Shown: positions 6,397-63,609 of the stretch, one piece after another
Layout: each line of letters begins with the position of its first letter
How positions within the stretch are numbered: position 1 is the first letter of the stretch
From: Trichosphaerium sp. ATCC 40318
Taxonomy: Eukaryota; Protista; Tubulinea
DNA length: 64,000 bases
Direction: 5' to 3'
NCBI GenBank assembly: GCA_038496445.1
Contig: JALMLS010000330.1
Span: forward strand, 62,001 to 126,000
Notes under the pieces: generated by a model
Seen by the model: the letters and a program-made list of their open reading frames with translations, nothing else
Database searches by the model: none
Told to the model about the DNA's origin: nothing
Translations under genes and position numbers: made by a program

Positions 6397-8200
6397 ATGA
6401 CTCTGGTTGGCGCTACAGTAGAACGAGCGATCATGTACTACTTGAAGAACCATTCGAAAGCTTACACTACAATTACGGCGGGAGATAAACATGCAACATT
6501 CATAAAACAAGTTGAGAACATAATAAGTGTATCAAATATGTCTCTCATACAACAGCTTGATGAAATTATTTTGAAGCAAGCAAACCACAGCAGCGAAGGA
6601 GTCAAACACACTCCTAAGTACATTGATTCGCCAAAAACAACGCGAAGAAAACAGTACGTAACGATTTTCTTTCAATAAACCAATTTCAGCTCTACATCTA
6701 ATGAATTGAGTTATCACGTGTTACAACACGTGTCATATGCCTTCCAAGCTTATTGCATGCTTTTAACTCCGAATTATCCGTTTGTTACTAACTGGCACCT
6801 CAGGACTTACACTGAAACACAAAGAACCAAATATCGTTGATTTTCCACCAGAGATCATTACAACTATTATAACCTTTACAAACAGCAAAGATAGATTTTC
6901 AATAGCTCAATCTTGTTGTATGATGTCTGACATCATTCATGATATCATTGGATATGATAAGGTTGGTCTATCAAACTTCAATGATATTTTAAAGGTTAAC
7001 AAGTATAAGGGTATCATGAACAACTCAGTGATTACTTTGAATGATATAAATATGAGAAGTGCAAGTTTTTATAGAATTTTATCTGGTTGTCGCCACATAA
7101 AAGCAAGGAAGTATGGTAGTATAACCGACTTGGATTTAGAAGCTCTTTGTGGTATTCATACAATTGATCTTTTAGATTGTAAATACATAACAGATAGAGG
7201 ACTTAAAGCACTCGCAGGTGTTCATACTATTGTACTAGCGGGATGTAATATAGGAGATGAAGGTGTTAAAGCACTCAAAGGCGTTCATACTATAAACCTA
7301 TCAAGAACTTCAGTAACAGATAAAGGCATCAATGCACTCAAAGGTGTTCATGAAATTAACCTTAATAATTGCAAAAAAATAAGAGGTTCAGGTATCAAAG
7401 CGCTGAGAGGTGTTCATACCATATACCTGTCTGATACTTCAATAACATCCAAAAGTATTAAACCATTAGCAGGTGTTCATACAATTGATCTTTCAATTTG
7501 TGGGAAAATAACAGATGTATCGATGCTTTCTGGTGTTCATTCTATAAACCTCAGGTACACTTCAGTATCAGATGACAGTATTAAACACCTTGCTGGAGTA
7601 CATACAATTTGTCTTAACTACACATCAGTCACAGATGAAGGTATAAAAGAGCTTGCTGGAGTTCATACAATTAGCCTAGCTAAAACTGAAGTAACAGATG
7701 AAGGGCTCAAAGCATTAAAAGGTGTCCATACAATTAAACTTTATAATTGTAAATACATAACAGATAGAGGACTTAAAGCACTCGGAGGTGTTCATACTAT
7801 TGTACTAGCGGGATGTAAGGTAGGAGATGAAGGTATTAAAGAGCTTGCTGGTGTTCACACCATTGACGTCAGGTATACTAACATAACAGATGACGGTATT
7901 ATGGCACTCAAAGGTGTACATACCATAAACCTATCGGCAGCTCCAGTAACAGATAAAGGCTTGAAAGCTCTCAAAGGTGTTCATGAAATTGACCTCCAAT
8001 ACTGTAAATACATAACAGATACAGGAATCAAAGAACTCAAGGGTGTTCATACCATTAATCTCTCTGGTACTGCTGTAACAGGTGAAGGTGTCAAATCATT
8101 AATAGGTGCTCATCAAATTCGTGCTAGCCGTAGTTCGACATCACACAAAATTGTTGCCGAAATGGCGAAACACAATTGCAAAGTACTTATCTGGAAATAA
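6397..8200 (+). CDS. F-box + leucine-rich repeat protein (GVHTIDL-type ~22-23 aa repeats) with extra N-terminal exon
   Basis: F-box-like IVDFPPEIITTIITF...SIAQSC followed by many TDEGIKALAGVHTIxLxxT repeats; upstream ORF 6397-6678 is homologous to 35344-35667; exact splice join unresolved. Confidence 0.8.
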
Positions 8201-8370: not shown

Positions 8371-10450
8371 TCATTCTTCTAAGGTACGTTCGTCAACAGT
8401 ATGAGCCAAAGCCCCTTGGTGAGCATCATGGCATGATTGAACACGACCAGAAGGGTCAAGGTTATCACACCATGCAGGAATCCAGTTCTTAACTGTCTTC
8501 TTGCACACATCCGTCTTGTACATTTTCTCGAACAAGTTACGGTAGAAGAATGCTTCCTTCGTCTTTGGTGGATCATGAGGGAACAAAGTCGCGCGGTTCT
8601 CCCATTGTTCTTCGGTGATGCTCTTCTCAGCCAACTCGATGAGTCCATCGATCCAGTTGTAGCCTACGCCATCGCTGAATTGTTCCTTTTGACGCCATAA
8701 GCAGTCTTTTGGGAGGTATGGGTCATCAGGGGTGTCGAAAGCCTTACGAAGTACGTCCTTCTCGATTACGCCATTGCCGCACATTTTAGCTTGTGGGTCA
8801 AAGCCGAAAGAAGTGTCTAAGAAGTCACGGTCGAGGAAAGGAACTAAGATAATAAAGTTAGAATTGAACGATTTTTTTTCGATTTTTTTTTGCAGAATTA
8901 GTCTTTTGTTAAAACACGTACCACGTGCTTCAAGACCCCATGCCATTGTTGACTTGTTAGCTCTCAAGCAATCACAAGTGTACAATTGTCCTACTCTGCG
9001 AACAGCTTCATCATGGAACTCTCTTGGGCTTGGAGCACCGTAGAAGTAAAGGTAACCTCCGTAGATCTCATCGGCACCTTCGCCTGAGAGAACCATTTTA
9101 CAGCCAGTTGCCTTGATCTTTCTTGACATCAAGTACATAGGTGTACTAGCACGGATGGTAGTAACATCATATGTTTCGAGATGCCAGATGACGTTCTCAA
9201 GAGCATCAAAACCATCCTGAAAAAAAATCAGAAACAAGAAAAAAATTGAATCGCAACGTCAAAAGAAAAGGTATCGTACCTGAACAGTAAAGGTGAATTC
9301 ATGATGAATAGAACCAATATGGTCAGCAACTTGCTTTGCAAAAGCAAGATCAGGAGAGTGTCCCTTGATACCAACAGAGAAGGTATGCAAGTTGTATCCC
9401 CACCATTGCTTGTCGTGATGGGCCTCTTTTTCTTTCAAGAGTCTGCTAGCAATTGAAGCTACCAAACTACTATCAAGACCTCCAGAAAGGAGTACACCAA
9501 AAGGAACCTCAGACATAAGTCTTCTGCGAACAGCAGTAGTAAGAGATTCTCTAATCTCAGCGTGTACTACTGGCTTCGTAGGGACCCATGTGGTGTCGAG
9601 GTATTGAGGTTTGTAGTAGCGATGGAATTCGCCTGTCTTGGACGAATAATAGTGACCAGGAGGGAAGCTCTAAAACACACAATGAGAAATGAATTTTGAA
9701 AAAAAAAAAAAAAAAAAAGACGTACGATTAACTCTTCAGTACAGTCATCCATGATTGTCTTCATCTCGCTGGTAATCCAGGTAGAACCATCCTTTCCTTT
9801 ACCCAAGTAAAGAGGTACTACACCGATAGGATCGCGAGCAGCAATGAAATGTTCACCATCGTATAAAACGAATCCGAAATCACCGCTTAACATGTCAATC
9901 ATTTTTTCCTTGTGCTCTTCCCAAAGGTACAAGAGTACTTCACAATCGGAACCAGTTTTTAACTCACGTTTGGTTTTAAGTCCCGCAAGTAGTTCGCGAT
10001 AGTTGTAAATCTCTCCGTTTACGAGAAGTACAGTTTTGCCATCTTCACTAGAAAGATAAAGTAAGTCTTAAGGTCGCAAGAATAAAAAAAAATAAAAGTT
10101 GGGAAAACCAAATGTACTCAGAACAGAGCGAGGATAACACGATAAGACGTACCTTATCAATGGCTGTTCGCCAGAGGCTACGCCCATAATGGCTAAGCGC
10201 TCATGCGCGAAGTAGTTGTTACCCACAACATGACTGCCTGTCCAATCAGGACCGCGATGTCTTAGTCTAAGGAATTGTTATTAGGTTGTTACGGAGTGAA
10301 GGGAAGAAAAATTGGGATGCGTTCACGCATTTTGAAAAATGACGAGATGTACCTTGCTGACAACTTCAATACGTATTGTCTGAAGCCGCGGGGGTCTTTA
10401 TCTTTAAATTTGCTTTCGTCTATGCCTAAAATTGCTAGGATGCCACACAT
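8371..10450 (-). CDS. ASNS: Asparagine synthetase (glutamine-hydrolysing), multi-exon
   Basis: Ntn N-terminus MCGILAIL; motifs [66 protein letters not shown]. Confidence 0.97.
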
Positions 10451-23104: not shown

Positions 23105-25887
23105 ATGGAAGTGGAAGCAACCAGTGAGCTCTTCGTAGGGTGTTTTGTTGTTTTACAAGATGGCGCCAATTACGACAGGATTAAACTCGCAAAGCATATC
23201 GCTGAACACGGTGGAGTGGTGTCTTTGGGCATAAATAAAAGGGTAAGCACAAATATTAGCACAACTACTTTAAAAACAAACACTTTCGCAGATAACGCAC
23301 TACGTATGTGATACTGTGAATGACCAGGCGAACCTCGCTAAAAAAGCTGGCGCAATGATTGTTAATGAAGATTATTTCTACGAATGCTGTGAGAACGAAA
23401 CCCTATTACCTGCGAAGAACTACGTCACAGTGGGAACAAAAAAAAAGCGAAAATACGTTCAAGAGTCCGATGACGAGTCTGACGACGATGAACCAGTAAA
23501 GAAAAAGGTATGTAAAACTCTAGTGGCATTTGGCGCCTTTTGGAAAGAAGCAAAGTTTAAAAAAAAACCGTTTAGGCAAAAAAATCGAATAAAACAACAA
23601 TGATAAAGAAAGGAAGTGCTGCTGTTGATTCAGCATGTCCAAATGGAAAGAATATGCATGTCTATGAAGAGAATAAAAAGCCTTGGGCTGCTATGTTAAC
23701 ACTGGTATGCGTATCCACTGTACAGTGGCACATGCTATTCGCTAACGAACGTATAGACGTGTATTGGACAAAATAACAACAAATTTTACATTGTACAATT
23801 GTTAGAAGCAGATAAAGCAAAGAAATGGTATTTGTGGACTAGATGGGGTAGAGGTTAGTGAATTACTCGTTGATTTATCTTTACTAATGAGACATAGTTG
23901 GTAATAGTGGTCAATCAAAAATGATTGCTATTGCAAGCTTGGAAGACGGCAAAGACCAATTTTGTAAAAAGTATGTCAACCAAAAATTTTTCTTGTTTGA
24001 CAGCTGTTTGTACTTATGGTTCACGTGTAGGTTCTATACTAAAACTAAAAATGACTGGGGCGATGCTGATTCTTTTGAGCAACAACCAGGTAAATACACC
24101 ATGATTGCATTAGACTATGGATCAGACAGTGAGGAAGAAGTAAAACCTAAAAAGAAAATTATGAAAAAGAAAAAGAAACCAAAATCAGGACTTGAAGAAC
24201 CGTACGTTTGACACGTGTTTGTTCTTTTATTCTCAATATATTCTCATATTGTAGTGTACAAGACCTCGTCAAGTTGATATGTAATAAAGAGCTCATGAAT
24301 AAAACTCTATTGGCAATGAACTACGATCGCAAAAAGATGCCGCTAGGTTCGTGGAACAAACAGAAATATTATTTTATTTATTCAGTCACTTAAACACTTC
24401 GCAGGGAAGCTTCACAAAAAGACGCTCACCAAGGGAACTAAAGTTTTAAAGGACCTTGAAGATGAGTTTACAGCTTGTGGTGGTACACCAGCACGTCATG
24501 TACTCCTTGAGTACTCAAACAGATTCTATACACTCATACCACATGCTTTTGGTATGAAAGTGCCACCTATCATTGATAGTGTTAAAGTCATTCAGCAAAA
24601 AGTAGAGTTCCTTGAGGTACCCTTAAATTCTTTGTGGAATTTTTTGCGCACGTGTGATGAGGATTTTGTGTTAAAGGTTTTTTAGGATCTTGCAGATATC
24701 AAGGTTGCACAACAGATTATTAATGATACTAAAGATGACGAGAATCCAATTGATACACAATACGAAAAATTGGGTATTGACATACAACCTCTTGATGAGG
24801 ATTCAGAAAAGTTCCAGATAATCCAAGAGTATGTCCAAAAGACGCATGCACCAACACACAAGAAGTACAAGTTAAAGATTCAACATATCTACGAAGTAGA
24901 AAGGTTAGTTATTTGATGAATTTAGCTTGCTGATAAGAGCAATCAAACCATTTGATTTACATCAGCTAATATTGTTCTAGAGAACCAGAACAAGAACCAT
25001 ACGAGGAGAATGCAGATATGGAAAACCAAATGTTGCTTTGGCACGGTTCCAGACTCACAAATTGGGTTGGTATTTTATCTCAAGGTAACCATAAAAAGAT
25101 TTTGAGCGTTTTTTTAGATCACTTGATTTTGACTTTTTTTTTTCTTATTAGGGCTTCGTATTGCTCCTCCTTCTGCTCCAGTTACAGGTTATATGTTTGG
25201 TAAAGGTGTATACTTTGCAGATAGTTGCTCCAAATCAGCAAATTATTGTCATGCTAGTAAAGAACAAGACCAAGTAAGTCCAAGTGGTATTTTTGAAAAT
25301 CCTTCCACTGCCGGGTGGTAATCTCGCTATTTGTTGTTTAATTGTACTAAATTACAATAGGGAGTATTGCTTCTATGTCAGGTAGCTCTAGGTACGATAC
25401 TGGGAGATTGTTGAGCAGAGATTTTGAAAGGTTCTTAACTGAATTTTAATTTAGGTAAAATGTTTAACAAGACGCAAGCTGACTCGAGTTTGACTAAAAA
25501 GAAGCTTCAGAAAAAGGTTTGAATTACCTATTATTTGATTTCTTACAAATCTGTAGGCTGGAGGCCCATACAACAGTACATTTGGCCAAGGTAAAAAGGG
25601 ACCATCGAAATTTGCAAAAATGTACGCAGCAAAACTCAAGTACTAAAACCAATTTCTGACAACTTTGTTTAGTGATGGTGACGTACAAGTACCAGTTGGA
25701 AAACTTACTGATACTGGTATAACAAATTCAGCGCTACTATATAATGAGTTTGTTGTTTATGATACATCACAGGTAAGTCATTTCTTGCAAGTTTTTTTTC
25801 TTTTTGATAAATTGAAAAAGTTCGTACTAATTTCTTGTCAAGTGTAAAATGAAATACTTGGTTGTTTTGAAGTTTTTGTGGAAATAA
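23105..25887 (+). CDS. Poly(ADP-ribose) polymerase (BRCT-WGR-regulatory-catalytic)
   Basis: N-terminal BRCT-like segment; WTRWGRVG; [10 protein letters not shown]; [23 protein letters not shown]; [21 protein letters not shown]; [10 protein letters not shown] (H-Y-E triad intact). Confidence 0.96.
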
Positions 25888-32685: not shown

Positions 32686-34959
32686 ATGATTGAAAACTAG
32701 TAATTCATTGCAAACATTTCTACTCATTCAAAGCACGAGATAATCGAAAGCGATCCCAATCATGAAATCAATCAGATGTGGCCAATTTTTGCAAGTTTAC
32801 AGCCACTAAAACACGATACAACGAGGATCTAGTCAAGCTTGGCATGTGGAAATCTTATTACGATGATGGAAAACTGAAGAGTAGTAAGACATAGAGAACT
32901 TTTTGCTAAGTAGTTGAAAACCAAAAAAAAATTCGTTGTGGTTCACAAATGTTCGCTAGCAACTTCATATTACGGCTACAATTAGACACAGTGCTGTTAA
33001 ATGTACTACAAATGTACTAGTAACCAAAAACTATCACATGGCTGTAAATTCGTAAAAAACTGAAAAACGTGCTTTTGTTGATAATTTTCATTCGAATGGT
33101 AAACAGTTTCTGAAAGCCAAAGTCACTTTTCAATGGCGTCTTACTATACACACAGTATCTTACATTGTGTCACGAAACTCCTGGGTTCAACTACAGATTA
33201 CAACATAAAATATGGCAGACCGCAACCGCCTGTTTCTAAGGCAACGGAAATACATTTCCCTATATCCAGAAAGGGTGGTACCAAAGTTTCAAAACAGGCC
33301 TTGCTGGTCTACCCAATCTTTACACGAAACAAAATAAAAACGTTTTTGGTAAGATACAAATACGCACCAAACTTTAGGACATGCGATTCTATGCGTAGAA
33401 AAGAACAATAAGAAGAACTTACCTCGTTTATTCCAATTAGTCGTATCCACAGTACTCAAATATGTATATTAAATCCACTACAACCTATTTAGTACTATAG
33501 TGACCTGCAAGAGTAAACAAGTGGTAGTGGTTCACGAAAAGTACGTTTTACAGTTTTTTAGCGCAAAAATGTGTCAACAAAGTTCTTGAATTAATTTCGC
33601 AGTTAGGTGCAATTATTGTACACTCTAATTTCGCTCAATGTGTTCTAAACGTATTATACATGCAGGCTATGCTTATCAACTACTTAGCAAAAAGTTCTCT
33701 AATAACGGAGAGTTACACGGGATTAGTAAGTCTTGGTATGAAAACACCAAGTTAAAATCACATATTCAGTATGTAAAAGGGAAAAGAGACGGGCAATTCA
33801 ACCATTGGTACGAAAATGGCCAACAGCACATACAATGCCATTTTGTAAACGATATAAAAAGAAGGCGAGAACAAACACTGGAGCTCTAACGGACAGCTGT
33901 TGCGTCTCTTTCACTACAAGAACAATAAAAGAGCGGGAGAGTACAAAGAGTGGCGAGAAAGCGGACAATTGGAAAAGATATTCCACTATGTGAAGGTTGG
34001 AATGTGCACGTGGTTTAATGAAAATGGCCAAATGCAAAGTTGTTGCCCCTACATCAATGGCAAGAAGGAAGGGACAAGAGTAGAATACTATAATAACGGT
34101 CAAGTAGAAGCACGTACAACCTACATCAATGGCGTAATGCACGGTGAGTTTAAGAATTGGTTTGAAAATGGTCAAGTGGTATCTCAAGGTAGTTATATCA
34201 ATGACAAACGCAACGGAGAGATTAAGCGGTGGTTTCAAAGTGGGCAATTGCGTGACACATGGAACTATGTAGAAGGCAAACTCGAAGGCGAGAGTAAAAG
34301 ATGGCACAATAACGGTCAACTAGCTGAACTTTCAAACTATGAGAATAATAAGCAGGAAGGAGTATATAAAAGGTGGTGCGCTAGTGGTAATTTAGGTATG
34401 TCGTAGTGAAGTCTTTTCCTCTAATAGTAAAGTAGAGCAGCATGGTCATTTCGCCAATGATAAGCCTCTATACACCATTATGTGGAATGACAAAGGCCAA
34501 CTGAAGAGGTACCGTAATTACCGTACTGGCGAGAGGAAGATATGGCATGATAACGGCCAATTGGCAATACAATTATTTATGATTAGCGGTAAGTTCGAAG
34601 GGAAGCACTTGTCATGGCACAAGAATGGTAAAATAAAGAGAATTACCACTTTTGTCAATGGCAAACAAGAAGGAGAGTTCACAATTTGGTATGAAAATGG
34701 CGAAAAGGAGGAACAAGGCCATCATATACGAAATGAGCTCAATGGTGAGATGAGGAGATGGTATGTAGATGGAAAATTGTATCAAGTTTATAACTACAGA
34801 GACGGTAAACTTGATGGAGAGTTCCAAGAATGGCAACAGAATGGTGTTTTGCGCAAAATTTGCAATTATGTCAACAACAAGTGTGAAAGAGAGGATCTAC
34901 GGCAAGAATCTAGCTCCTTTGAACCAGAAGTAATATGCAAGAACGATAAACAGATTTGA
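32686..34959 (+). pseudogene. F-box-like + MORN (YwqK/MORN_2-type) repeat gene, disrupted
   Basis: Many WYENGQ...GKxEG repeats at 33666-34959; frameshift in the A-run at ~33856-33860; degraded 5' part 32686-32883 (in-frame stops and a frameshift) aligns with the TRY...LxKxGxW linker of the paralogs at 50616 and 63609. Confidence 0.65.
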
Positions 34960-35343: not shown

Positions 35344-36900
35344 ATGGACTGCTTGGGCACTTCAATTGAGCAGGCACTCATATACTATTGTGAGAACCAC
35401 AAAGATGAATACAGTAGAATTACTGCAGAACAACGCAAACCATTCCTAAAACAGCTTGAAAGTATCTTAAACAATGCAAACAAGAGACTGATGTTACAAC
35501 TTGACCAATATCTACTCCAAAACACTTGTACGACTAAACAGCGAGCAGAAAAGGTTGCCAAGGATATACATTCACAACGTCATCGTGATACAAACACTGA
35601 AGAGCTAGCATTGCCTCAACATAAGCTAACAAGACAGTGCGCTATTCCTTATTGTTTATATCACTAACAGCTGCAAAAAAGTAGAACACAGACGACTATA
35701 CAACACTCCACCATTCTCGATTTCCCCCCAGAGGTTATTTCAACTATCCTACATCAGGTAGATGCAAAATCAAGATTTATTGTTGTGCAAACTTGTCATA
35801 TGATGGCTGATATTATTCATCATGTTGTTGGTTATGAAAAGATATTCATATATGACATTCCAGATATTCTAAAGGTTAGACAATACCAAGGTGTTATGAA
35901 CAACACAATCGTTGTTTTGAATGTTGAAAACAATACTTTATTCTCATTGCTGTCAGGGTGTAAAAACGTTTCTGCTGAGTTCACAAGAAGTTCTGTAGCA
36001 TTAATTGAGAAGAGTAGTGTTATAAATGACACTGACCTCAAAGCACTTGCAGGAGTTCATTACATTTATCTAAATCGTTGTAAGCATATTACAGATGAAG
36101 GTATACGAGCATTGAGCGGTGTACATACCATAGTTCTTTCTATGACGTCAGTCACAGATGAAGGTATTAAAGCACTTAAAGGTGTTCATAATATTTGCCT
36201 TTGTAGTTGTAAAAACGTGACGGATGAAGGCATCAAATCGCTTGCAGGAGTGCACACGATTGATGTAATGTTATGTCCAAATGTGACGGATGAAGGCATC
36301 AAATGCTTAGCTGGTGTTCACCACATTGATCTTTCACGTACCTCAGTGACAGATAGGGGTGTAAAGTTCCTAGCTGGAGTTCACACAATCTACCTTTCTC
36401 GTACTTCAGTAACTGATGAGGGAATCAAATCACTCAAAGGAGTACACTCCATCTATCTTCAAGATGTACCTGTTTCAGATGAGGGTGTTAAAGCACTTGC
36501 AGGCGTTCATACTATTCATCTTGGAGATACATCAGTGACAGATGAAGGTATAAAATCACTCAAAGGAGTTTATGCTATTGACCTTTCTCGCACATCAGTG
36601 ACTGATGAAGGTGTCAAAGCATTGAAAGGAGTTCATGCAATTAATCTTGATGGCACATCAGTTACAGACGAAGGCATAAAAGCTCTAATAGGAGTCCATA
36701 CTATTGGACTTCTAAATTGTGATCAAGTGACAAATGAAGGTATTAAAGTACTTGCAAGTGTACCAAGCCTGCATGCTATTGAAAAGCCTTGGAGCTATAA
36801 ACGTGACCCTGGACGCCCTAAGCATATTCAAATAGTTGTCTATCATCATTTGTTTATACAACGTGCTTTGAAACTGTATTATAAAGGTCTGCCCTGTTAG
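35344..36900 (+). CDS. F-box + LRR (GVHTIDL-type) protein with N-terminal helical domain
   Basis: ILDFPPEVISTILHQ F-box-like motif, VTDEGIKALxGVHxIxL repeats; first exon paralogous to 6397-6678. Confidence 0.82.
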
Positions 36901-41570: not shown

Positions 41571-42377
41571 CTAACAATAGTATGTAGCTCCTAACGCCTT
41601 CAAACATTCATCTGTTACATGTGTAAATGGTACATCAATAGTATGCACGCCTGCCAACGCCTTGATACCCTCATCTGTAATCAATAAACAAGCACCTAGC
41701 CTAATAGTGTATACACCTGCCAAAGCCTGTATACCTTCATCTGATACCTTTGTACTTGTTAAATCTATAGTATGTACACCTGCCAACTCTTTGATTCCCT
41801 CGTCTGTTATTGATTCACAACCACTTAACGAGATAGTGTGTACACCTGCCAATACCTTCAACCCCTTGTCTGTGACATTTGTAAATGATAAATCAATCTT
41901 GTATACACCTGCTAACGCCTTGATACCATCATCTGTAATCAATTCACAATTACTTAACCTAATGGTGTGTACACCTGCTAAAGCTTTGATTCCTTCATCA
42001 GTCACCATTGTAAATGATAAATCAATCTCATGTACACCTGCTAACGCCTTGACGCCATTGTCTGTTACCTTTGTAAATGGTAGCATAATAGTATGTACAC
42101 CTGCTAATGCTTTGATTCCTTCACAAGTAAAATCAAAATCAAAAGAAATAATTGTATTGTGGAGTAATGGGCTGCCAGAAAGGATCTTAATGCCATCTTC
42201 ACTAGTTATTTTAATATAATTGTATCCAATGTGGTCATGAACAATAGATCGCAAAAAGCGGCATGTTTGGGCTGATTGGAGAGTATAATTCCCTTGTTTG
42301 AGAATATGCACTATAACTTCAATTGGTAGCGCAATAAGGTCAAATATGTATTCGTTTGTATTTTCGTTTTGTTCCAT
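41571..42377 (-). CDS. F-box + LRR (GVHTIDL-type) protein, single exon
   Basis: LIALPIEVIVHILKQ...SAQTCRFL followed by TDEGIKALAGVHTI repeats. Confidence 0.85.
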   Translation of the reverse strand: MEQNENTNEYIFDLIALPIEVIVHILKQGNYTLQSAQTCRFLRSIVHDHIGYNYIKITSEDGIKILSGSPLLHNTIISFDFDFTCEGIKALAGVHTIMLPFTKVTDNGVKALAGVHEIDLSFTMVTDEGIKALAGVHTIRLSNCELITDDGIKALAGVYKIDLSFTNVTDKGLKVLAGVHTISLSGCESITDEGIKELAGVHTIDLTSTKVSDEGIQALAGVYTIRLGACLLITDEGIKALAGVHTIDVPFTHVTDECLKALGATYYC

Positions 42378-43520: not shown

Positions 43521-43930
43521 ATGAACACAACAATATTATTTGTATTGGTGACTTTGGCATTGATACCAATTGCCTTGACGACCCAATCTAAAGACTCTGA
43601 AGAAATGCCAGACATGCATGAAAAGAGATCAACTGAGGTATGTCGACACTTGGTACTTTTACATTGTATTGTTAATTAACACCTCATCTAGCAAGGACCA
43701 CTGTTGTGTGGCGAAACATGTGATACAAATGGATGGTGCCCTCCTGGATGGCGTAAACGTGGTCGTGAAAAGAATGGTCAATGTATGTGAAAAATCAAAG
43801 GTTGGTAATTCTTAAATACTTACATACGATAGGTTCAACTGCATACTGCTACCCTGGATCTCCATTGTGCTTTCGCATCAGAAGTGATAAATGGTGTTGC
43901 TGGAGCGAAGCTGCTTGTGGAAGCTGCTAA
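43521..43930 (+). CDS. Secreted 10-Cys prepropeptide, copy 2 (leader type B), 3 exons
   Basis: Exons 43521-43637, 43692-43782, 43833-43930: MNTTILFVLVTLALIPIALTTQSKDSEEMPDMHEKRSTE followed by the same 62-aa peptide. Confidence 0.88.
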
Positions 43931-44664
43931 GATCCTGCACTCCAATATGAATGTAAAACTAAATAAAGTACCCAAGTTTTACTATTATTCGTTTTCATAG
44001 TTAGGCTGCATTGTCAGCTCCAAGTTCAACAAGAAACACATGTTGTGAGTCAATTGAATACACAGTGTATGTGGCAACGTGTGTGCCTGTAAAAACCAAT
44101 GAGCATAGGCACTACATTATTTTAGCAGAAACTGGTTTATTAAACGTGAAACACACTTGTTCAATCGCTAAAATAATGTTCAACGTAGCGCTAAAATATA
44201 GCAATGCAGACTTGCATTCACTTTTCAAGCAAGTGATACCGCATACAGGCAGGGCATGGCATCCAAATGTTACAGTTACTACAACATATGGTGTTAGAGC
44301 GAATGGTATAGCCATGTTTAATTAGCAAAACAGCACTAAACCAGGATAGAACCAAAGGCAATGTAAACCTTTTTGACTTTGTCCTTATGCCATTGAGTAC
44401 AATCAAATTAGCTCAGTGAGTGAACTATGAGCATAAGAAGTAACTCAACTATTTTTTGCTGGCAAGTATTGAGCCGACCCATTTTTTTGTAGTGATTGCT
44501 GGAGAATGTAATAGTTCATTGGCCGAAGAATTGTGACTGAAATTTATGTTTCATTTTGATACAACGAGCAGTTTAGTTAGTAAACTGTAGTCTGATTCTA
44601 CTTGTTGGCACTTTTATTGATTTCTTACAATGATATATGGCACAACAAGTATGGCTTTGCAATC

Positions 44665-45072
44665 TTAGCAACTTCCACAAGCAGCTTCACTCCAGCAACA
44701 CCATTTGTCACTTCTGATGCGAAAGCATAATGGAGATCCAGGGTAGCAGTATGCAGTTGAACCTAATAAAGGTAAGTATTAAAGAATTACCATCCTTGAT
44801 TTTCACGTACATTGACCATTCTTTTCTCGACCACGTTTACGCCATCCAGGAGGACACCATCCATTTGTATCACATGTTTCACCACACAACAGTGGTCCTT
44901 GCTAAATTGCATGTTAATTAACAATACAATGTAAAAGTACCAAGTGTCGACATACCTCAGTTGATCTCTTTTCATGCATGTCTGGCATTTCTTCAGAGTC
45001 TTTAGATTGGGTCGTCAAGGCAATTGGTATCAATGCCAAAGTCACCAATACAAATAATATTGTTGTGTTCAT
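44665..45072 (-). CDS. Secreted 10-Cys prepropeptide, copy 3 (leader type B), 3 exons
   Basis: Leader exon identical to copy 2; same 62-aa peptide with only synonymous changes. Confidence 0.88.
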
Positions 45073-45423
45073 TTGTTGTTTGTTAGAAGATGAGCTTTGT
45101 TGTTGGTTGAGGTTTTGTAATTTGGTTTTGTTTGAATGTACTTAGACATCGATTTAAGTCTTCATATTCACTGAACAAAAGTATCATAAAATGTTTACCA
45201 CATTTCTTTTTCGCTAAATCCAACGCTTGTAATCCATGATTGTTAGTCATCAATATACTGACACAAATAATGCTATTCTATCTGGGTTTTGCAAAGTAGA
45301 CTTACGATATTGTGAAACAAATATAATTTACCGTAACATTTCACGTGAATGGAGACTTAAACCATAATGACCTTCAAGTCATAAATACAAACCATAACAA
45401 GAACAACTACACCTTATAGAACA

Positions 45424-45817
45424 ATGCAAACAACAACACTTTTCGCTTTTGTACTCATGGCATTGACTGTTGCCTTGGCGGTCCAATCTAATGAGCTCAG
45501 TGAAAGAGCTAAACGAGCAACTGAAGTAAGTAAAGATCTCATTACTTTTCCATCGCATTCTAATATCGATTTAGCAAGGACCACTGTTGTGTGGTGAAAC
45601 ATGTGATACAAATGGATGGTGTCCTCCAGGATGGCGTAAACGAGGTCGAGAAAAGAACGGTCAATGTACGTGAAGATCAAAAGAAGGGTAACAGACTTCT
45701 TTGTACTTACCTTTATTAGGTTCAACTGCATACTGCTACCCTGGATCTCCATTATGCTTTCGCATAAGAAGTGACAAATGGTGTTGCTGGAGCGAAGCTG
45801 CATGTGGAAGCTGTTAG
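45424..45817 (+). CDS. Secreted 10-Cys prepropeptide, copy 4 (leader type A), 3 exons
   Basis: Exons 45424-45525, 45575-45665, 45720-45817: MQTTTLFAFVLMALTVALAVQSNELSERAKRATE followed by the same 62-aa peptide. Confidence 0.88.
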
Positions 45818-45887
45818 TCACTAACTGCTTTACTGTGCTTTAATCAAATAAAGACAACTTAGTTAAAGTACACAATGGCGTTTATTT

Positions 45888-48084: not shown

Positions 48085-50347
48085 TTAGTATGATCCACGA
48101 CGTCTCATTGCTGCCAGCCTTTCCCTCTCTTTTCTCCTTCTCTCCTCTTCTTCAAGGTACTTCTTTCGTTCATCCAACACTTTTTCGAATTCTCGTATGA
48201 GTAGAATACTGTTCCATGTCCTACACACTTGTCTTGCTCTTCCAATTGTTTTAGAATTGAAATTAGCAAATACAAGAACTACTGCGTCTACTGGCATAAA
48301 AAGAGGTGAAGCAAAGTCTGGCATGCCAAGTTTTGGCCAGAATTTAGCCCAACTGTTTGCAAAATTTGTACTTGGTTGATAGCCAGGAATAACGTTATCA
48401 GTAGGTGCTATCTTATCAAGTATAAAGAGGCGGTAGTGAGAGAATATCATTTCTCTGAACTCTGCATACATTTCTCCAACTTGAATGGCATAATGATCTC
48501 TTACTGGTTGTACAATAATTGAATGAATATTGTCAAGCCTAAAAACAATTACATATCGGAACACATTGATCAATTTTCTTTGTTCAATACACTCCAAATA
48601 AATGAATGCCCGAGCAGTGCAACAATGAAAAAACAAAAAGAAAAACAAGGATTAAGTTTTTCAGTTGCAACAAAGCAATAATAATCACAGTTGTCGTACG
48701 CTTTTCTGGCTTGTGCCTTACTAGAACCAAATTGTGGTGTCTTCGTTTTTTTAATAATGTTAGCTAACCTTCTATCGTCTTCTTCGATAATAGCCTTTAA
48801 AAGATTGGAAAAAGGACCTGACCACATTCCTGTTTGTTTCTGAAAAAAAGAGGTCAGATTTTACCGTTTTTTCAAATGACCAATTATTCGCTGCTACATA
48901 CCTTCCATCTTGAGCATACGAGGTATAATGGGTGGGCTTTATTTGAAGGCATCATTATTATTGCCCATATCCGTTCGAAGGCTTCCTTTTTCATGTCGGG
49001 AACAGAAATCTTATTTTCTTTGATTTCTTGTTGAATATCCATTGGAATATGTGCTATTTTGTCAAGTTTATCATCGACACCGAGAAACTCTCTAAAAGGC
49101 CTTGTGTCTTTTGCAAATGCTGCTTCAAGGTAGGTTTTGTGTTTATCGAATTGAGCTTTGAGTGCGTTGTATATAGCATTGAATTCCGCCAAGTGAATTT
49201 CGTTTTTTATTTTCTTCTTGAACGAGCTAACTTGTTTCATACGCATCAATTGCCAGACATATAGTGGGTATATCTGCATAGCTAACTCGTGTCCATCAAG
49301 CCAAGACTCTCTTATATACTTTAAGCGTAACCCAGTATCAACAACGCGAACAACGTATCCTTAATAAAAAAGTTAAAATGAGAAGATTTCTAAAGTGCTT
49401 GCCTTCGGATCCTGTAGCTCGCCTGAGTTTTATTTTATCGTTCAATTTCTTCAAGCTTTGTACTTTTATAGGTTTGATAGATTTAACGCCAAGAGTATTT
49501 GCAATATCAATAACATCAGGTAAAGTGAGTTCGTATCCTTTATCGTCATAAACAGCCAAAAGAATCGGTTCTTGATGCAAAATGTTAAGTTAGCTTTTTT
49601 TCGTTTTAAGTACTGGTATTAACATGACGTACCCTCGAAGTCATATTCAACAACTACAGTGTTTTCTTTATAAATGATTTCAAAGATATATGTCCAAGAC
49701 TCTTTCATTTTCTCAAGTGCACCATGTTCCGTCAACCAAGCCTAAAATTGTTTGTTGTCAACAATTATTTTTGTTACATTTTTCTTTTAGTTTTACGTAC
49801 AGCAGCCCATTTAGCCTGTGAGGAGTTCATGCGAGATTTCGTTGTGACACAAATCTTCCCTTTCCAAATGAAAGCAACGCCCATTGAGCCTAAAATAACG
49901 TTGACGGTAAGCACTTGATACCCTTTTTTCGTTTTTTGTATTAGTTCAATGATTTGGTCTTACCATCATATTTTTCTGTTACTTCTATTTTAGCGTCTTT
50001 AGCCATCGCAGATGTGAGGTTTTCTTCGATTTCGTTGTACCTAAAGAATTTTGGGAAGCCATGAGCTATCACTTTCCCTTCTTTGTGGTCTATGGTACGT
50101 AAGTTATTTGTTGCATGTATAATTAGGCTAAATATAAGTACATACCTACAACAAGACCTCTGCAGAGGCAACCAACTTGAAAGTCATTTGATGGTGTTAT
50201 TGAGTCAAAAGCGTAGCGATATACAGATAAACCGCAGCCATCGTCGTACTTTACAATCTTTTTTTGCTCTAGTCCCTGTTTTAAAGCCTTTTCTAGATCC
50301 TCCCAAGGCATAGCACGCACAGGATGCTGCTTTAGATCCTTTGCCAT
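48085..50347 (-). CDS. T4 Rnl1-like RNA ligase fused to C-terminal F-box-like motif(s)
   Basis: CRGLVV, HGFPKFF, motif I TEKYDGS (spliced), TYIFEII, SEGYVV, RLK; C-terminal LFMPVDAVVLVFANFNSKTIGRARQVCRTWNSIL. Confidence 0.82.
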
Positions 50348-50615
50348 TTTAGTACAACCAATCTGGTTTTGAGTTGACTTTTGGCATTTTAGCCGAAATT
50401 CGAGTGAACTTTGCAAAACGTTTTATCTTGTTCTTACCAGTGTCACGTGGCTTTTGTTATTGCGTCTTTTACGAAGGCCATGTGGTAGTCCACAAGCCAA
50501 ACACTAAAGAATGTGTAGTGTTCAATGAACGTCAAACGGTTGAAAACGTGAAACATGGTTTTTGGCGATATAACGTATTAAAGAACGTCGTGCTTGATAT
50601 TAATGCTTGTTGGCA

Positions 50616-51737
50616 ATGTCTAAAGACAATTGGCGGGTAGTTCACTTTAAATGGTATAAGAATGCCAAAGACATCACCGAAGTGCGTCTGTGCGGCTCTT
50701 GGGATAACTGGAAAGTAAATCAGCTGATAATGACAAAAGTTGTAAAATATTCAAAATCTGGTGATCTAGTCTCTTGTGTGTTTGGAGCAGGTTTAAACTT
50801 AGCACATGGCACGTACGAATACAAATTTGTTGTAGATGGCGTATGGCAGCATGATGACACCGCACCCACGCGGGTCGACGCCTCAGGTAACATAAACAAC
50901 GTAATAACGATCCTAAAAGACTTTCAACATAAATATTATTTAAACAATCCTAAAACAACTCAAAATGATCCTTGTCGCACTTGTACAGATACAATAGGAA
51001 CAATGGACGTAGTTATAAACTATTTAAAAGACGAGAATAAGTATGCCATTGAAGGCGCGATACCGCCTCTATTAAACCTACCACTTGAACTACAACATAT
51101 GATTATAGACACTTCCAAAGAAGTTTATGTCAAATGGCCTGTACTGTGCTATGGTACAGCAGTAACTTCTCGATTCAATAATAAACTTGAACGACATGGC
51201 ACATGGAAAACAAGCGCACATGTTTGGTTTTATGAAGATGGAAAGGCGTGCAGAAAACATCAAATTTTCAAAAATGGAGTTATTTTTTCATCATGCGATT
51301 ATAACCTTGGTATGAGACATGGCGCTTATCGAAGATGGTACAAGTATACTCCTAAAATACTAGTATCTAATTGTTGCTATAGGTATGATAATGGGCAGCC
51401 TTGGCAGCAGTTGGAGTATAAAAATGGTAAAAAACATGGAAAGTCACAACATTGGTACAAAAATGGACAAATGATGAAATTGAGGTTTTACAATAACGGT
51501 AAAATCATTGATAATACTTTATATTGGTATACTACTGGTGTGCTTAAAAGCTCAAGATGGTATATGAACGGGAAACAGCATGGAGAGGAGAAAAAGTGGT
51601 ACACTAATGGATCTCTTGCTTTTTTAGCTTTGTATCATCATGGAACGGTTACTGCTACTCCACAGTGTTGGACACGTGCTGGAAGACCTACAGCACGAGT
51701 TTTCCTTGTACGTAGGCGTATAAGGAGGAGAAGATGA
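50616..51737 (+). CDS. CBM48 (AMPK-beta-type glycogen-binding) + F-box-like + MORN repeat protein
   Basis: EVRLCGSWDNW...GTYEYKFVVDGVWQHD...GNINNVI; LLNLPLELQHMII; WYxNG/GKKHG repeats; probable 45-nt in-frame intron at ~51338-51382. Confidence 0.85.
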   Translation: MSKDNWRVVHFKWYKNAKDITEVRLCGSWDNWKVNQLIMTKVVKYSKSGDLVSCVFGAGLNLAHGTYEYKFVVDGVWQHDDTAPTRVDASGNINNVITILKDFQHKYYLNNPKTTQNDPCRTCTDTIGTMDVVINYLKDENKYAIEGAIPPLLNLPLELQHMIIDTSKEVYVKWPVLCYGTAVTSRFNNKLERHGTWKTSAHVWFYEDGKACRKHQIFKNGVIFSSCDYNLGMRHGAYRRWYKYTPKILVSNCCYRYDNGQPWQQLEYKNGKKHGKSQHWYKNGQMMKLRFYNNGKIIDNTLYWYTTGVLKSSRWYMNGKQHGEEKKWYTNGSLAFLALYHHGTVTATPQCWTRAGRPTARVFLVRRRIRRRR

Positions 51738-62926: not shown

Positions 62927-63609
62927 TCAAAGTTTCCTATCGTTGATATAAATTCCCTCATCGAGTAATGTACCATCACTGCTCCATTCCTTGTAAACAC
63001 CCTCTCGCTTATCGTTGATATAATGGCACTGCTCCTTCATATTGCCGTTTTGATGCCAAGACCTGTGTTCTCCTTCTATTTTATCTTTGAGATAATAATA
63101 CTTCTCAAACAACACACCGTGTTGGTACCAGTACCTAGCTTCGCCCTCTTTCTTACCATTGACATAAAAGAAATGCTTCCATATTTGATCCGTGTTGTAA
63201 TACCATTGCTTGAACTCTCCTTCTCGCTTACCCCTTACATAGTGACAGTGCTCAAGCAAATAGCCGTTTTTATTCCACTGTTTTCGCTCTCCTTCAAGCT
63301 TACCTTTTGAATAATAGCTCTTCAGCCAAAGAACACCATTTTTGTGATAACTCTTTCGCTCTCCATCAAGTTTACCATCAATAGACATTGCTGCTGAAGT
63401 TTACCAAACTTGTGTTTAACCCATTTTCCTCGTTTGTCAAGCTTAGAATCATATCTTGTGTTGGTTGCTGCGTATTTAGATACAAGTGGTAGTTTTAATT
63501 GCGCTTCAAAGTCCAAATCAATTAATTCAAAGAGAAGCTCAACTGGAAGGTGTAGAAGAAGACAGTCATCTACTGTTACGGTATCACTCTGTTTTTCATC
63601 CTTGTTCAT
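62927..63609 (-). pseudogene. F-box-like + MORN repeat gene with a single frameshift (~63385)
   Basis: LLLHLPVELLFELID F-box-like ORF 63322-63609 overlaps the MORN ORF 62927-63388 in a different frame; no intron of plausible length restores the frame. Confidence 0.65.

Follow-up and report, generated by a model that had tools for sequence, protein, structure and literature searches.

We describe a spliced gene of the tubulinean protist Trichosphaerium sp. ATCC 40318 in which a remodelled Rnl1-type RNA ligase and an F-box share one open reading frame (ORF). The gene lies in a stretch of 64,000 nucleotides (nt) of contig JALMLS010000330.1 (positions 62,001 to 126,000 of assembly GCA_038496445.1), hereafter the window, whose own numbering is used throughout. 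Splicing joins the ligase exons to the exon that holds the F-box, and the ligase has lost two motif V residues that are invariant among its relatives. We tentatively favour a protein that docks to the Skp1-Cul1-F-box (SCF) ubiquitin ligase, in which the remodelled ligase would bind ATP and RNA ends and seal them poorly, or only if they are pre-adenylated. A search of the literature by title and abstract found no Rnl1/F-box fusion; reviews of RNA repair may list eukaryotic Rnl1 fusions.

Gene structure and splicing

The gene extends on the minus strand from an ATG at 50347 to a stop codon ending at 48085, exactly the span proposed in a first-pass annotation of the letters alone. Its introns 1-7 measure 56, 74, 59, 62, 43, 62 and 161 nt; six of them carry GT-AG splice sites and intron 5 alone is GC-AG. 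Short introns and dense genes are the local character of this genome.

Transcript evidence comes from contigs of two public runs (X1 and X2) of one sample in one study; the kind of run is unrecorded, and both are taken as RNA-derived because their contigs skip introns. The junctions of exons 6, 7 and 8 appear in a 370-nt contig present in both runs (48997-48405), and that of exons 5 and 6 in a 173-nt contig of X1; exon 6 is open throughout between the two. The spliceosomal introns seen at first pass are thus confirmed by spliced contigs of this sample for introns 5, 6 and 7, introns 1-4 being predicted only: for introns 2 and 4 only one nearby solution preserves the frame, and for introns 1 and 3, where alternatives exist, the consensus donors were picked.

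Spliced contigs also confirm that the ligase exons are joined to the exon holding the F-box. Within that exon, the C-terminal motif of the ligase and the F-box are 24 codons apart, and the sequence between them has neither a stop codon nor a listed GT donor candidate. The bridging contig stops at 48405, and the 105 nt from there to the F-box start at 48300 are open and in frame. The early proposal of one reading that continues to a C-terminal F-box is borne out by the eight-exon frame, by the contigs joining exons 5-6 and 6-7-8, which end before the F-box, and by a Pfam match.

Four differences between contig and gene are listed, all of them in exon 7 and within 48 nt (48738-48785), and none is listed across 229 nt of flanking exons in the same contig; the cluster might represent another allele, another strain or a conversion tract. 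Of the four, three are synonymous, where chance predicts 0.22 per change (p ~0.03; a single contig at depth 5-7); this hints weakly at selection and fits an impaired ligase as well as a competent one.

The ligase and its relatives

Annotated phage RNA ligases align with the spliced model, which scores 221 bits against a profile of 80 relatives over aa (amino acids) 5-315, with a second match at aa 464-491. Exons 2 and 4 match PF09511 (below cutoff) and PHROG 562; an NCBIfam scan gave no match.

Two terminal signatures define a narrower group. H-P-x-R occupies aa 8-11, and P-T-D-N-x-I-x-G-Y-x-P-S scores 18.2 bits against the C-terminal profile (best of 500 shuffles, 9.3). A degenerate pattern made from the latter (aa 476-487) found nine viral stretches, seven of them at the end of an RNA ligase, and the ligases found in this way share the H-P-x-R start and outscore those found earlier. 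Among 74 genome-set relatives collected with other patterns, the N-terminal signature recurs (H in 71, P in 59, R in 64). Likewise, 74 genome-set relatives found by N-terminal patterns carry the C-terminal motif (P in 74, N in 71, G in 73, Y in 74), which is therefore not a pattern artefact. An alignment of six of the ligases obtained with the C-terminal pattern retrieved the relatives, as the best 80 of 341 genome, 80 of 340 viral and 80 of 521 metagenome matches. Among the matches listed, hosts include Planctomycetota, Alphaproteobacteria, Cyanobacteriota, Melainabacteria and others, together with large phage contigs, and the closest score up to 149 bits at 33-34% identity. On its terminal signatures and scores, the ligase can be assigned to this uncharacterised bacterial and phage RnlA subfamily of about 375 aa (H-P-x-R/P-T-G-N-x-L-x-G-Y-x-P-S).

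Folds were compared on the relative L111 in place of the whole window protein. L111 (pLDDT 95) has T4 Rnl1 as its best structural match (Z 24.4-24.9), and T4 Rnl1 is also the best match of the subfamily profile in the PDB (E 1e-23). The C-domains of the two superpose poorly in the same pose, with a root-mean-square deviation of 5.0 over 258 residues and 13.9 over 328. Next comes the fungal and plant Trl1 (Rnl6 clade), a ligase of eukaryotes whose adenylyltransferase domain also resembles Rnl1 (Z about 21, for L111); its match is weaker than that of T4 Rnl1 (E 9e-4), and the window protein differs from it in having no kinase or cyclic phosphodiesterase domain. Giant-virus ligases appeared as fold matches only, none by name among the fetched loci. 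An Atlas match of exon 6, to a cluster with T4_Rnl1_C in 11% of its members, serves as a lead only.

Family scans of the exons found no kinase or phosphatase domain in the 581-aa model, as had been observed at first pass. This is unremarkable, since in the flanks fetched for 106 subfamily loci a Pnkp-like gene occurred at only 7 of them. Among the ORFs of the window no Pnkp-, metallophosphoesterase- or Ro-like match appeared at E<=0.5, in a scan that is weak on such short exons. Some large-phage relatives adjoin Ro60/TROVE and metallophosphoesterase genes, and one adjoins Pnkp; in line with these neighbourhoods, RNA repair is described in jumbo phages (PMC7824862).

An altered active site

All the motifs named at first pass were found again: CRG (aa 62), FPKFF (79), KYDG (107), FEII (159), EGYVV (231) and RLK (243). 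Their description as intact nucleotidyltransferase motifs breaks down in motif V, which reads R-L-K-Y-I-R: the second lysine is replaced by Ile247, and the tyrosine four residues further on by Trp251.

We scored 12 positions, equivalent to T4 Rnl1 R54, K75, K99, D101, G102, K119, E159, E227, G228, K240, K242 and Y246, which we take to be the catalytic sites; in T4 Rnl1, both K242 and Y246 are reportedly essential. Ten are kept here (R63, K81, K107, D109, G110, K127, E160, E231, G232 and K245). All twelve are kept by 232 of 244 full-length relatives; 11 have no basic residue in motif Ia and one has no Asp. The replaced Lys and Tyr are present in 244/244, even in rows whose identity to the reference is 23%. 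A motif V pattern had been used to gather part of the viral set; in the sets gathered without it, both residues occur in 74/74 and 76/76 sequences (three more stop short of the site). Overall, this protein departs from its subfamily at 7 of the 29 invariant positions of aa 1-300. Five of these are shared with T4 Rnl1, which has W, N, G, K and Y at D55, R84, S128, I247 and W251. Record 2 of X1, a spliced contig, spans the Ile247 and Trp251 codons with no listed difference; we infer that the codons agree, since its one differing letter is unlisted and differences are listed away from contig ends.

The likeness to T4 Rnl1 (PDB 2C5U, 5TT6, 9DO4; PF09511, PHROG 562) covers motifs I, Ia, III and IV, along with R63 and K81, invariant in 172/172 relatives. 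These match T4 R54 and K75, described as the gamma-phosphate Arg and Lys of the Rnl1 N-subdomain (PMC6379707); the position of T4 K99 was taken from PMC3514331. The differences are the second motif V lysine, the following tyrosine and the shared W, N and G, all missing here, and the seven introns, an insertion of about 110 aa and the C-terminal F-box. We file the protein as apparently Rnl1-derived and not as an intact Rnl1. Of the domesticated RNA-repair enzyme suggested at first pass, the Rnl1-type ligase stands; its intactness is weakened by the changed residues, two of them invariant in 244/244 relatives and three more shared with T4. The defence against ribotoxins of prey bacteria or viruses that was also suggested would be a speculative role.

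Work on other ligases indicates what the loss of a motif V lysine may do. In Trl1, both motif V lysines are reported to contact the alpha phosphate (PMC6379707). T4 Rnl2 K227Q is described as losing enzyme adenylation, keeping step 3 and sealing pre-adenylated ends (PMC3149579); according to PMC7261155, NgrRnl K326A behaves like K227Q, and similar results are cited there for T4 Rnl1 motif V mutants. The window protein resembles K227Q and K326A in having lost a motif V lysine and differs in that those are engineered mutants of other ligase families.

The eleven relatives that have no motif Ia residue (L128, L132, L165, L220, L227 and six more) are phage or metagenome ligases with Ala, Cys, Val or Gly instead, and several of them fall in one well-supported clade. 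The neighbourhoods of L165 and L128 include Ro60/TROVE, metallophosphoesterase and ADP-ribosylglycohydrolase genes.

F-box, insertion and tail

By pattern, the C-terminal motif was found in 106 of 257 distinct ligases; past the motif, 105 of the 106 continue for 10-18 aa and one for 79. The window protein continues for about 95 aa past the motif, first with an F-box and then with a charged tail; because 105 of the 106 relatives stop so soon, we regard the F-box as an addition after the natural ligase end. Scanned alone, the F-box reaches 28.6 bits for PF00646 (E 1.2e-6, cutoff 20.5, profile positions 4-40 of 43) and 26.5 bits for PF12937 (cutoff 24.3), with 26-29 bits for PF00646 across scans, so that the C-terminus passes the Pfam cutoff. 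Atlas feature matches 1-4 are F-box clusters (0.90-0.91, with low shared counts), again only a lead.

In a modelled complex with Skp1, the F-box gave an ipSAE of 0.62, compared with 0.01 for the best of three controls; the 0.62 mark is reached by 51/78 solved pairs vs 2/108 mismatched ones. Runs agree in at least 88% of contacts, the pLDDT of the partner is at least 72, and the predicted interface comprises F-box residues 511-540 and Skp1 residues 99-158. The Skp1 partner was a stand-in (L286) from a viral contig, confirmed as Skp1 by Pfam. Of the earlier idea of a ligase coupled to SCF, a single ORF with a true F-box holds; docking to Skp1 is a prediction of the model.

The stretch from the first motif V lysine to the C-terminal motif is 231 aa long here and 115-136 aa in 105 relatives, which places an insertion of about 110 aa at some point within aa 316-463. 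Profile scans of the insertion gave no internal repeat and no family match. A second, weaker F-box had been annotated within it, at aa 333-383. Four scans of segments with all or part of it (at E<=1, E<=0.05 and, for two segments, E<=10; HMMER filters drop most matches above E 0.1) returned no Pfam F-box match, and we drop this claim. A shifted F-box-like reading of aa 353-390, in which the proline is absent, was rejected by eye and gave no profile match.

The single-sequence model of exon 8 is poor overall (pLDDT 46.6) and its Foldseek search was uninformative. The tail could hold a nuclear localisation signal.

Table 1 Features of the ligase/F-box gene, in window coordinates
Feature	Position	Strand	Evidence or remark
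Whole ligase/F-box gene	50347-48085	minus	8 exons, one open frame, 581 aa
Exons 1-4	50347-50146, 50089-49964, 49889-49801, 49741-49633	minus	
Exons 5-8	49570-49403, 49359-48902, 48839-48700, 48538-48085	minus	
Intron 5	49360-49402	minus	43 nt, GC-AG, splits motif IV (E231-G232), skipped in one X1 contig
Rnl1-type adenylyltransferase domain and start of helical C-domain, aa 5-315, with N-terminal H-P-x-R	49109-50335	minus	221 bits vs subfamily profile
Motif I Lys107-Tyr-Asp109, lysine nucleophile	49965-49973	minus	Lys107 kept in 172/172 relatives; Gly110 split by intron 2
Altered motif V, aa 243-251	49301-49327	minus	Lys245 kept; Ile247 (49315-49313), Trp251 (49303-49301)
Aa 316-463, holding the ~110-aa insertion	48444-49108	minus	spacing comparison; insertion edges approximate
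Second F-box of the first-pass annotation, aa 333-383, inside the insertion	49057-48905	minus	no profile match
Natural C-terminal motif of the ligase subfamily, P-T-D-N-x-I-x-G-Y-x-P-S, aa 476-487	48370-48405	minus	18.2 bits
F-box, aa 511-548, predicted Skp1 dock	48187-48300	minus	Pfam PF00646
Charged Glu/Arg/Lys-rich tail, aa 549-581, predicted helix	48088-48186	minus	helix 111-147 of exon-8 model, pLDDT 75-91 there

Homologue searches and origin

The homologue search with exon 8 found none in 767 candidates and none in another set of 29; exon 6 found none in 135, and a further search gave chance matches. The sole match of exon 6 among 1.84 billion sequences was rejected as a tandem-repeat protein, and PDB sequence matches of exon 8 were chance hits to Hsp70 tails. 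The part of exon 8 preceding the F-box had no tblastn match in phages or plasmids. These blanks are weak because single exons, not the spliced protein, were the query.

Among 120 matches listed of 244, in a search dominated by actinophage-like proteins, no F-box family was found in the longer ligases. Many actinophage-type RnlA ligases of 700-770 aa (P0015, P0022, P0026 and others) carry PF03161, which we take to be a LAGLIDADG family, and some also PF14890, presumably an intein-splicing domain. These domains are apparently inserted just after motif I, a split displayed by P0079, P0097 and P0101.

Four trees were built from bacterial, phage and metagenome relatives, giant-virus and other eukaryotic Rnl1 sequences being left out. 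The window sequence has a branch of 1.9-3.1 in them, vs medians of 0.45-0.73. In two trees this long branch falls on the subfamily side of a branch with 99-100 support; its sister changes from large phage contigs in one tree to bacteria or an unresolved position in others, and by the approximately unbiased test a placement with the other group is still acceptable (p 0.43). The nearest relatives that turned up come from bacteria and phages, and the ligase gene probably had a prokaryotic or phage source.

Neighbouring genes in the window

Three single-ORF leucine-rich repeat (LRR) genes, at 6767-8197 (+), 35668-36897 (+) and 41574-42377 (-), match LRR_6 with 73-100 bits. Each starts with an F-box-like motif; two of these have weak Pfam F-box matches (E 9e-4 and 3e-3, below cutoff) and one has none.

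The divergently transcribed neighbour of the ligase gene (50604-51737, +), partly covered by a contig, encodes an AMPK1_CBM glycogen-binding domain and MORN_2 repeats; the F-box-like stretch L-P-x-E-L that separates the two gave no Pfam match. Downstream lies a spliced gene at about 47965-46100 (-), with joints 47091/47306 and 47377/47422 and repeated D-D-W-Y-type units; it had no Pfam match in 4/4 segments, and its likely start is ~120 nt past the ligase stop. Further MORN_2 repeat ORFs occur at 33858-34959 (+) and 62927-63400 (-), an intron-containing asparagine synthetase at 8371-10067 (-) and a PARP regulatory domain exon at 24347-24685 (+). Near-identical repeated short ORF pieces at 43800-45840 (e.g. 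44625-44921 and 45414-45839) suggest a small tandem gene family.

Discussion

We propose the following course of events for the ligase/F-box protein. The ligase gene would have been acquired from a bacterium or phage and then gained introns. R63, K81, K107, D109, G110, K127, E160, E231, G232 and K245 would still bind ATP or AMP, and would likewise bind 5'-phosphate or 5'-adenylated RNA ends. With the second lysine of motif V lost, self-adenylation and AMP transfer would be slowed or blocked; at most, sealing of pre-adenylated ends would remain, as in T4 Rnl2 K227Q. Finally, the F-box would recruit Skp1-Cul1, and either proteins held at an RNA break or the protein itself would be ubiquitinated. 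On this reading the protein is probably the targeting arm of an SCF ubiquitin ligase and would detect broken RNA ends, without being a full-cycle repair enzyme. A bolder version, which we consider doubtful, is a natural partial-chemistry ligase acting as an RNA-break sensor for SCF: it would hold 5'-phosphate or 5'-adenylated ends, leave the repair incomplete and tag for destruction whatever ribosome, nuclease or viral protein is attached.

Compared with known systems, the protein shares both terminal signatures with its RnlA subfamily, as well as having no fused healing domain; the members, however, are compact, and all keep K-x-K and Y. With SCF F-box receptors it has in common the canonical F-box profile and the modelled Skp1 interface. 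Its F-box is attached to an RNA ligase fold, not to ankyrin, LRR or WD40 repeats, the usual F-box partners. C-terminal F-boxes that bind SKP1 are described for Orientia Ank proteins (PMC5957444). The F-box/PRANC proteins of Orientia and poxviruses have theirs at the C-terminus too, whereas the window gene is a spliced host gene.

Several points weigh against the SCF-docking, sealing-impaired protein that we favour. Neither a relative nor a second copy with this architecture was found among the sequences fetched, so no conservation is shown for the fusion. The docking pass is a sign of likeness, not of binding, because it concerns a textbook pair and a stand-in Skp1. No single X1 or X2 contig includes the F-box or the whole span of the gene, stretches without cover being uninformative. 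The motif Ia basic residue, missing in 11/244 relatives, illustrates that variation is tolerated elsewhere in the active site, and Arg248 could compensate for the lost lysine. Retained chemistry would fit as well, because 10 of 12 catalytic residues, including the nucleophile, survive on so long a branch (1.9-3.1 changes per site). Motif V is described in PMC1807946 as having 'one or two lysines', and archaeal Rnl3 ligases that have Thr or Val in place of the second lysine are reported to be active (PMC3514331).

These last points would suit a competent ATP-dependent ligase with a one-lysine motif V of the kind that works in Rnl3 ligases (PMC3514331), which would repair cut tRNA or other RNA with a separate kinase/phosphatase while the F-box controls its turnover or location; this is the view closest to the first-pass one. 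The scarcity of Pnkp-like neighbours in the subfamily (7/106 loci in the fetched flanks) and the synonymous differences of exon 7 (3/4, p ~0.03, one contig) agree with such an enzyme, as do the ten kept positions. We nevertheless hold it to be somewhat unlikely: Lys and Tyr are invariant in 244/244 relatives, 7/29 positions of aa 1-300 that the subfamily keeps invariant differ here, and the insertion breaks the C-domain, reported to set tRNA specificity in T4 Rnl1 (PMC6379707).

Alternatively, the gene might be a drifting, lineage-specific chimera born of F-box shuffling, its ligase fold serving as a generic protein-binding surface for SCF or having no selected role. The three F-box-like/LRR genes in the same 64 kb, a branch about four times the median and the missing homologues of exons 6 and 8 in the single-exon searches all lean this way. 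Against it stand a frame open over eight exons, the splicing and a preserved catalytic core; moreover, a profile of the three F-box-like motifs in the window misses this F-box at E<=10, from which it follows that the F-box is not a recent copy of these neighbours. We judge this origin improbable. Far more improbable still is an artefact, with ligase and F-box belonging to two genes or the F-box matching by chance. It could appeal to the modest F-box score, to the one sample behind the RNA evidence and to contigs that neither span the gene nor reach the F-box, and it is opposed by the single exon shared by the ligase's C-terminal motif and the F-box, and by an F-box that passes both the curated cutoff and the docking model.

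The natural change from Lys to Ile mirrors the engineered step-3-only ligases of small-RNA cloning, and the protein therefore offers a simple test of motif V rewiring. If the F-box works, the gene would represent a captured anti-ribotoxin enzyme that has been wired to the ubiquitin system. If, in addition, the sensor reading were true, it would establish a direct link from RNA damage to cullin-RING ubiquitination, made from a captured bacterial or phage enzyme.

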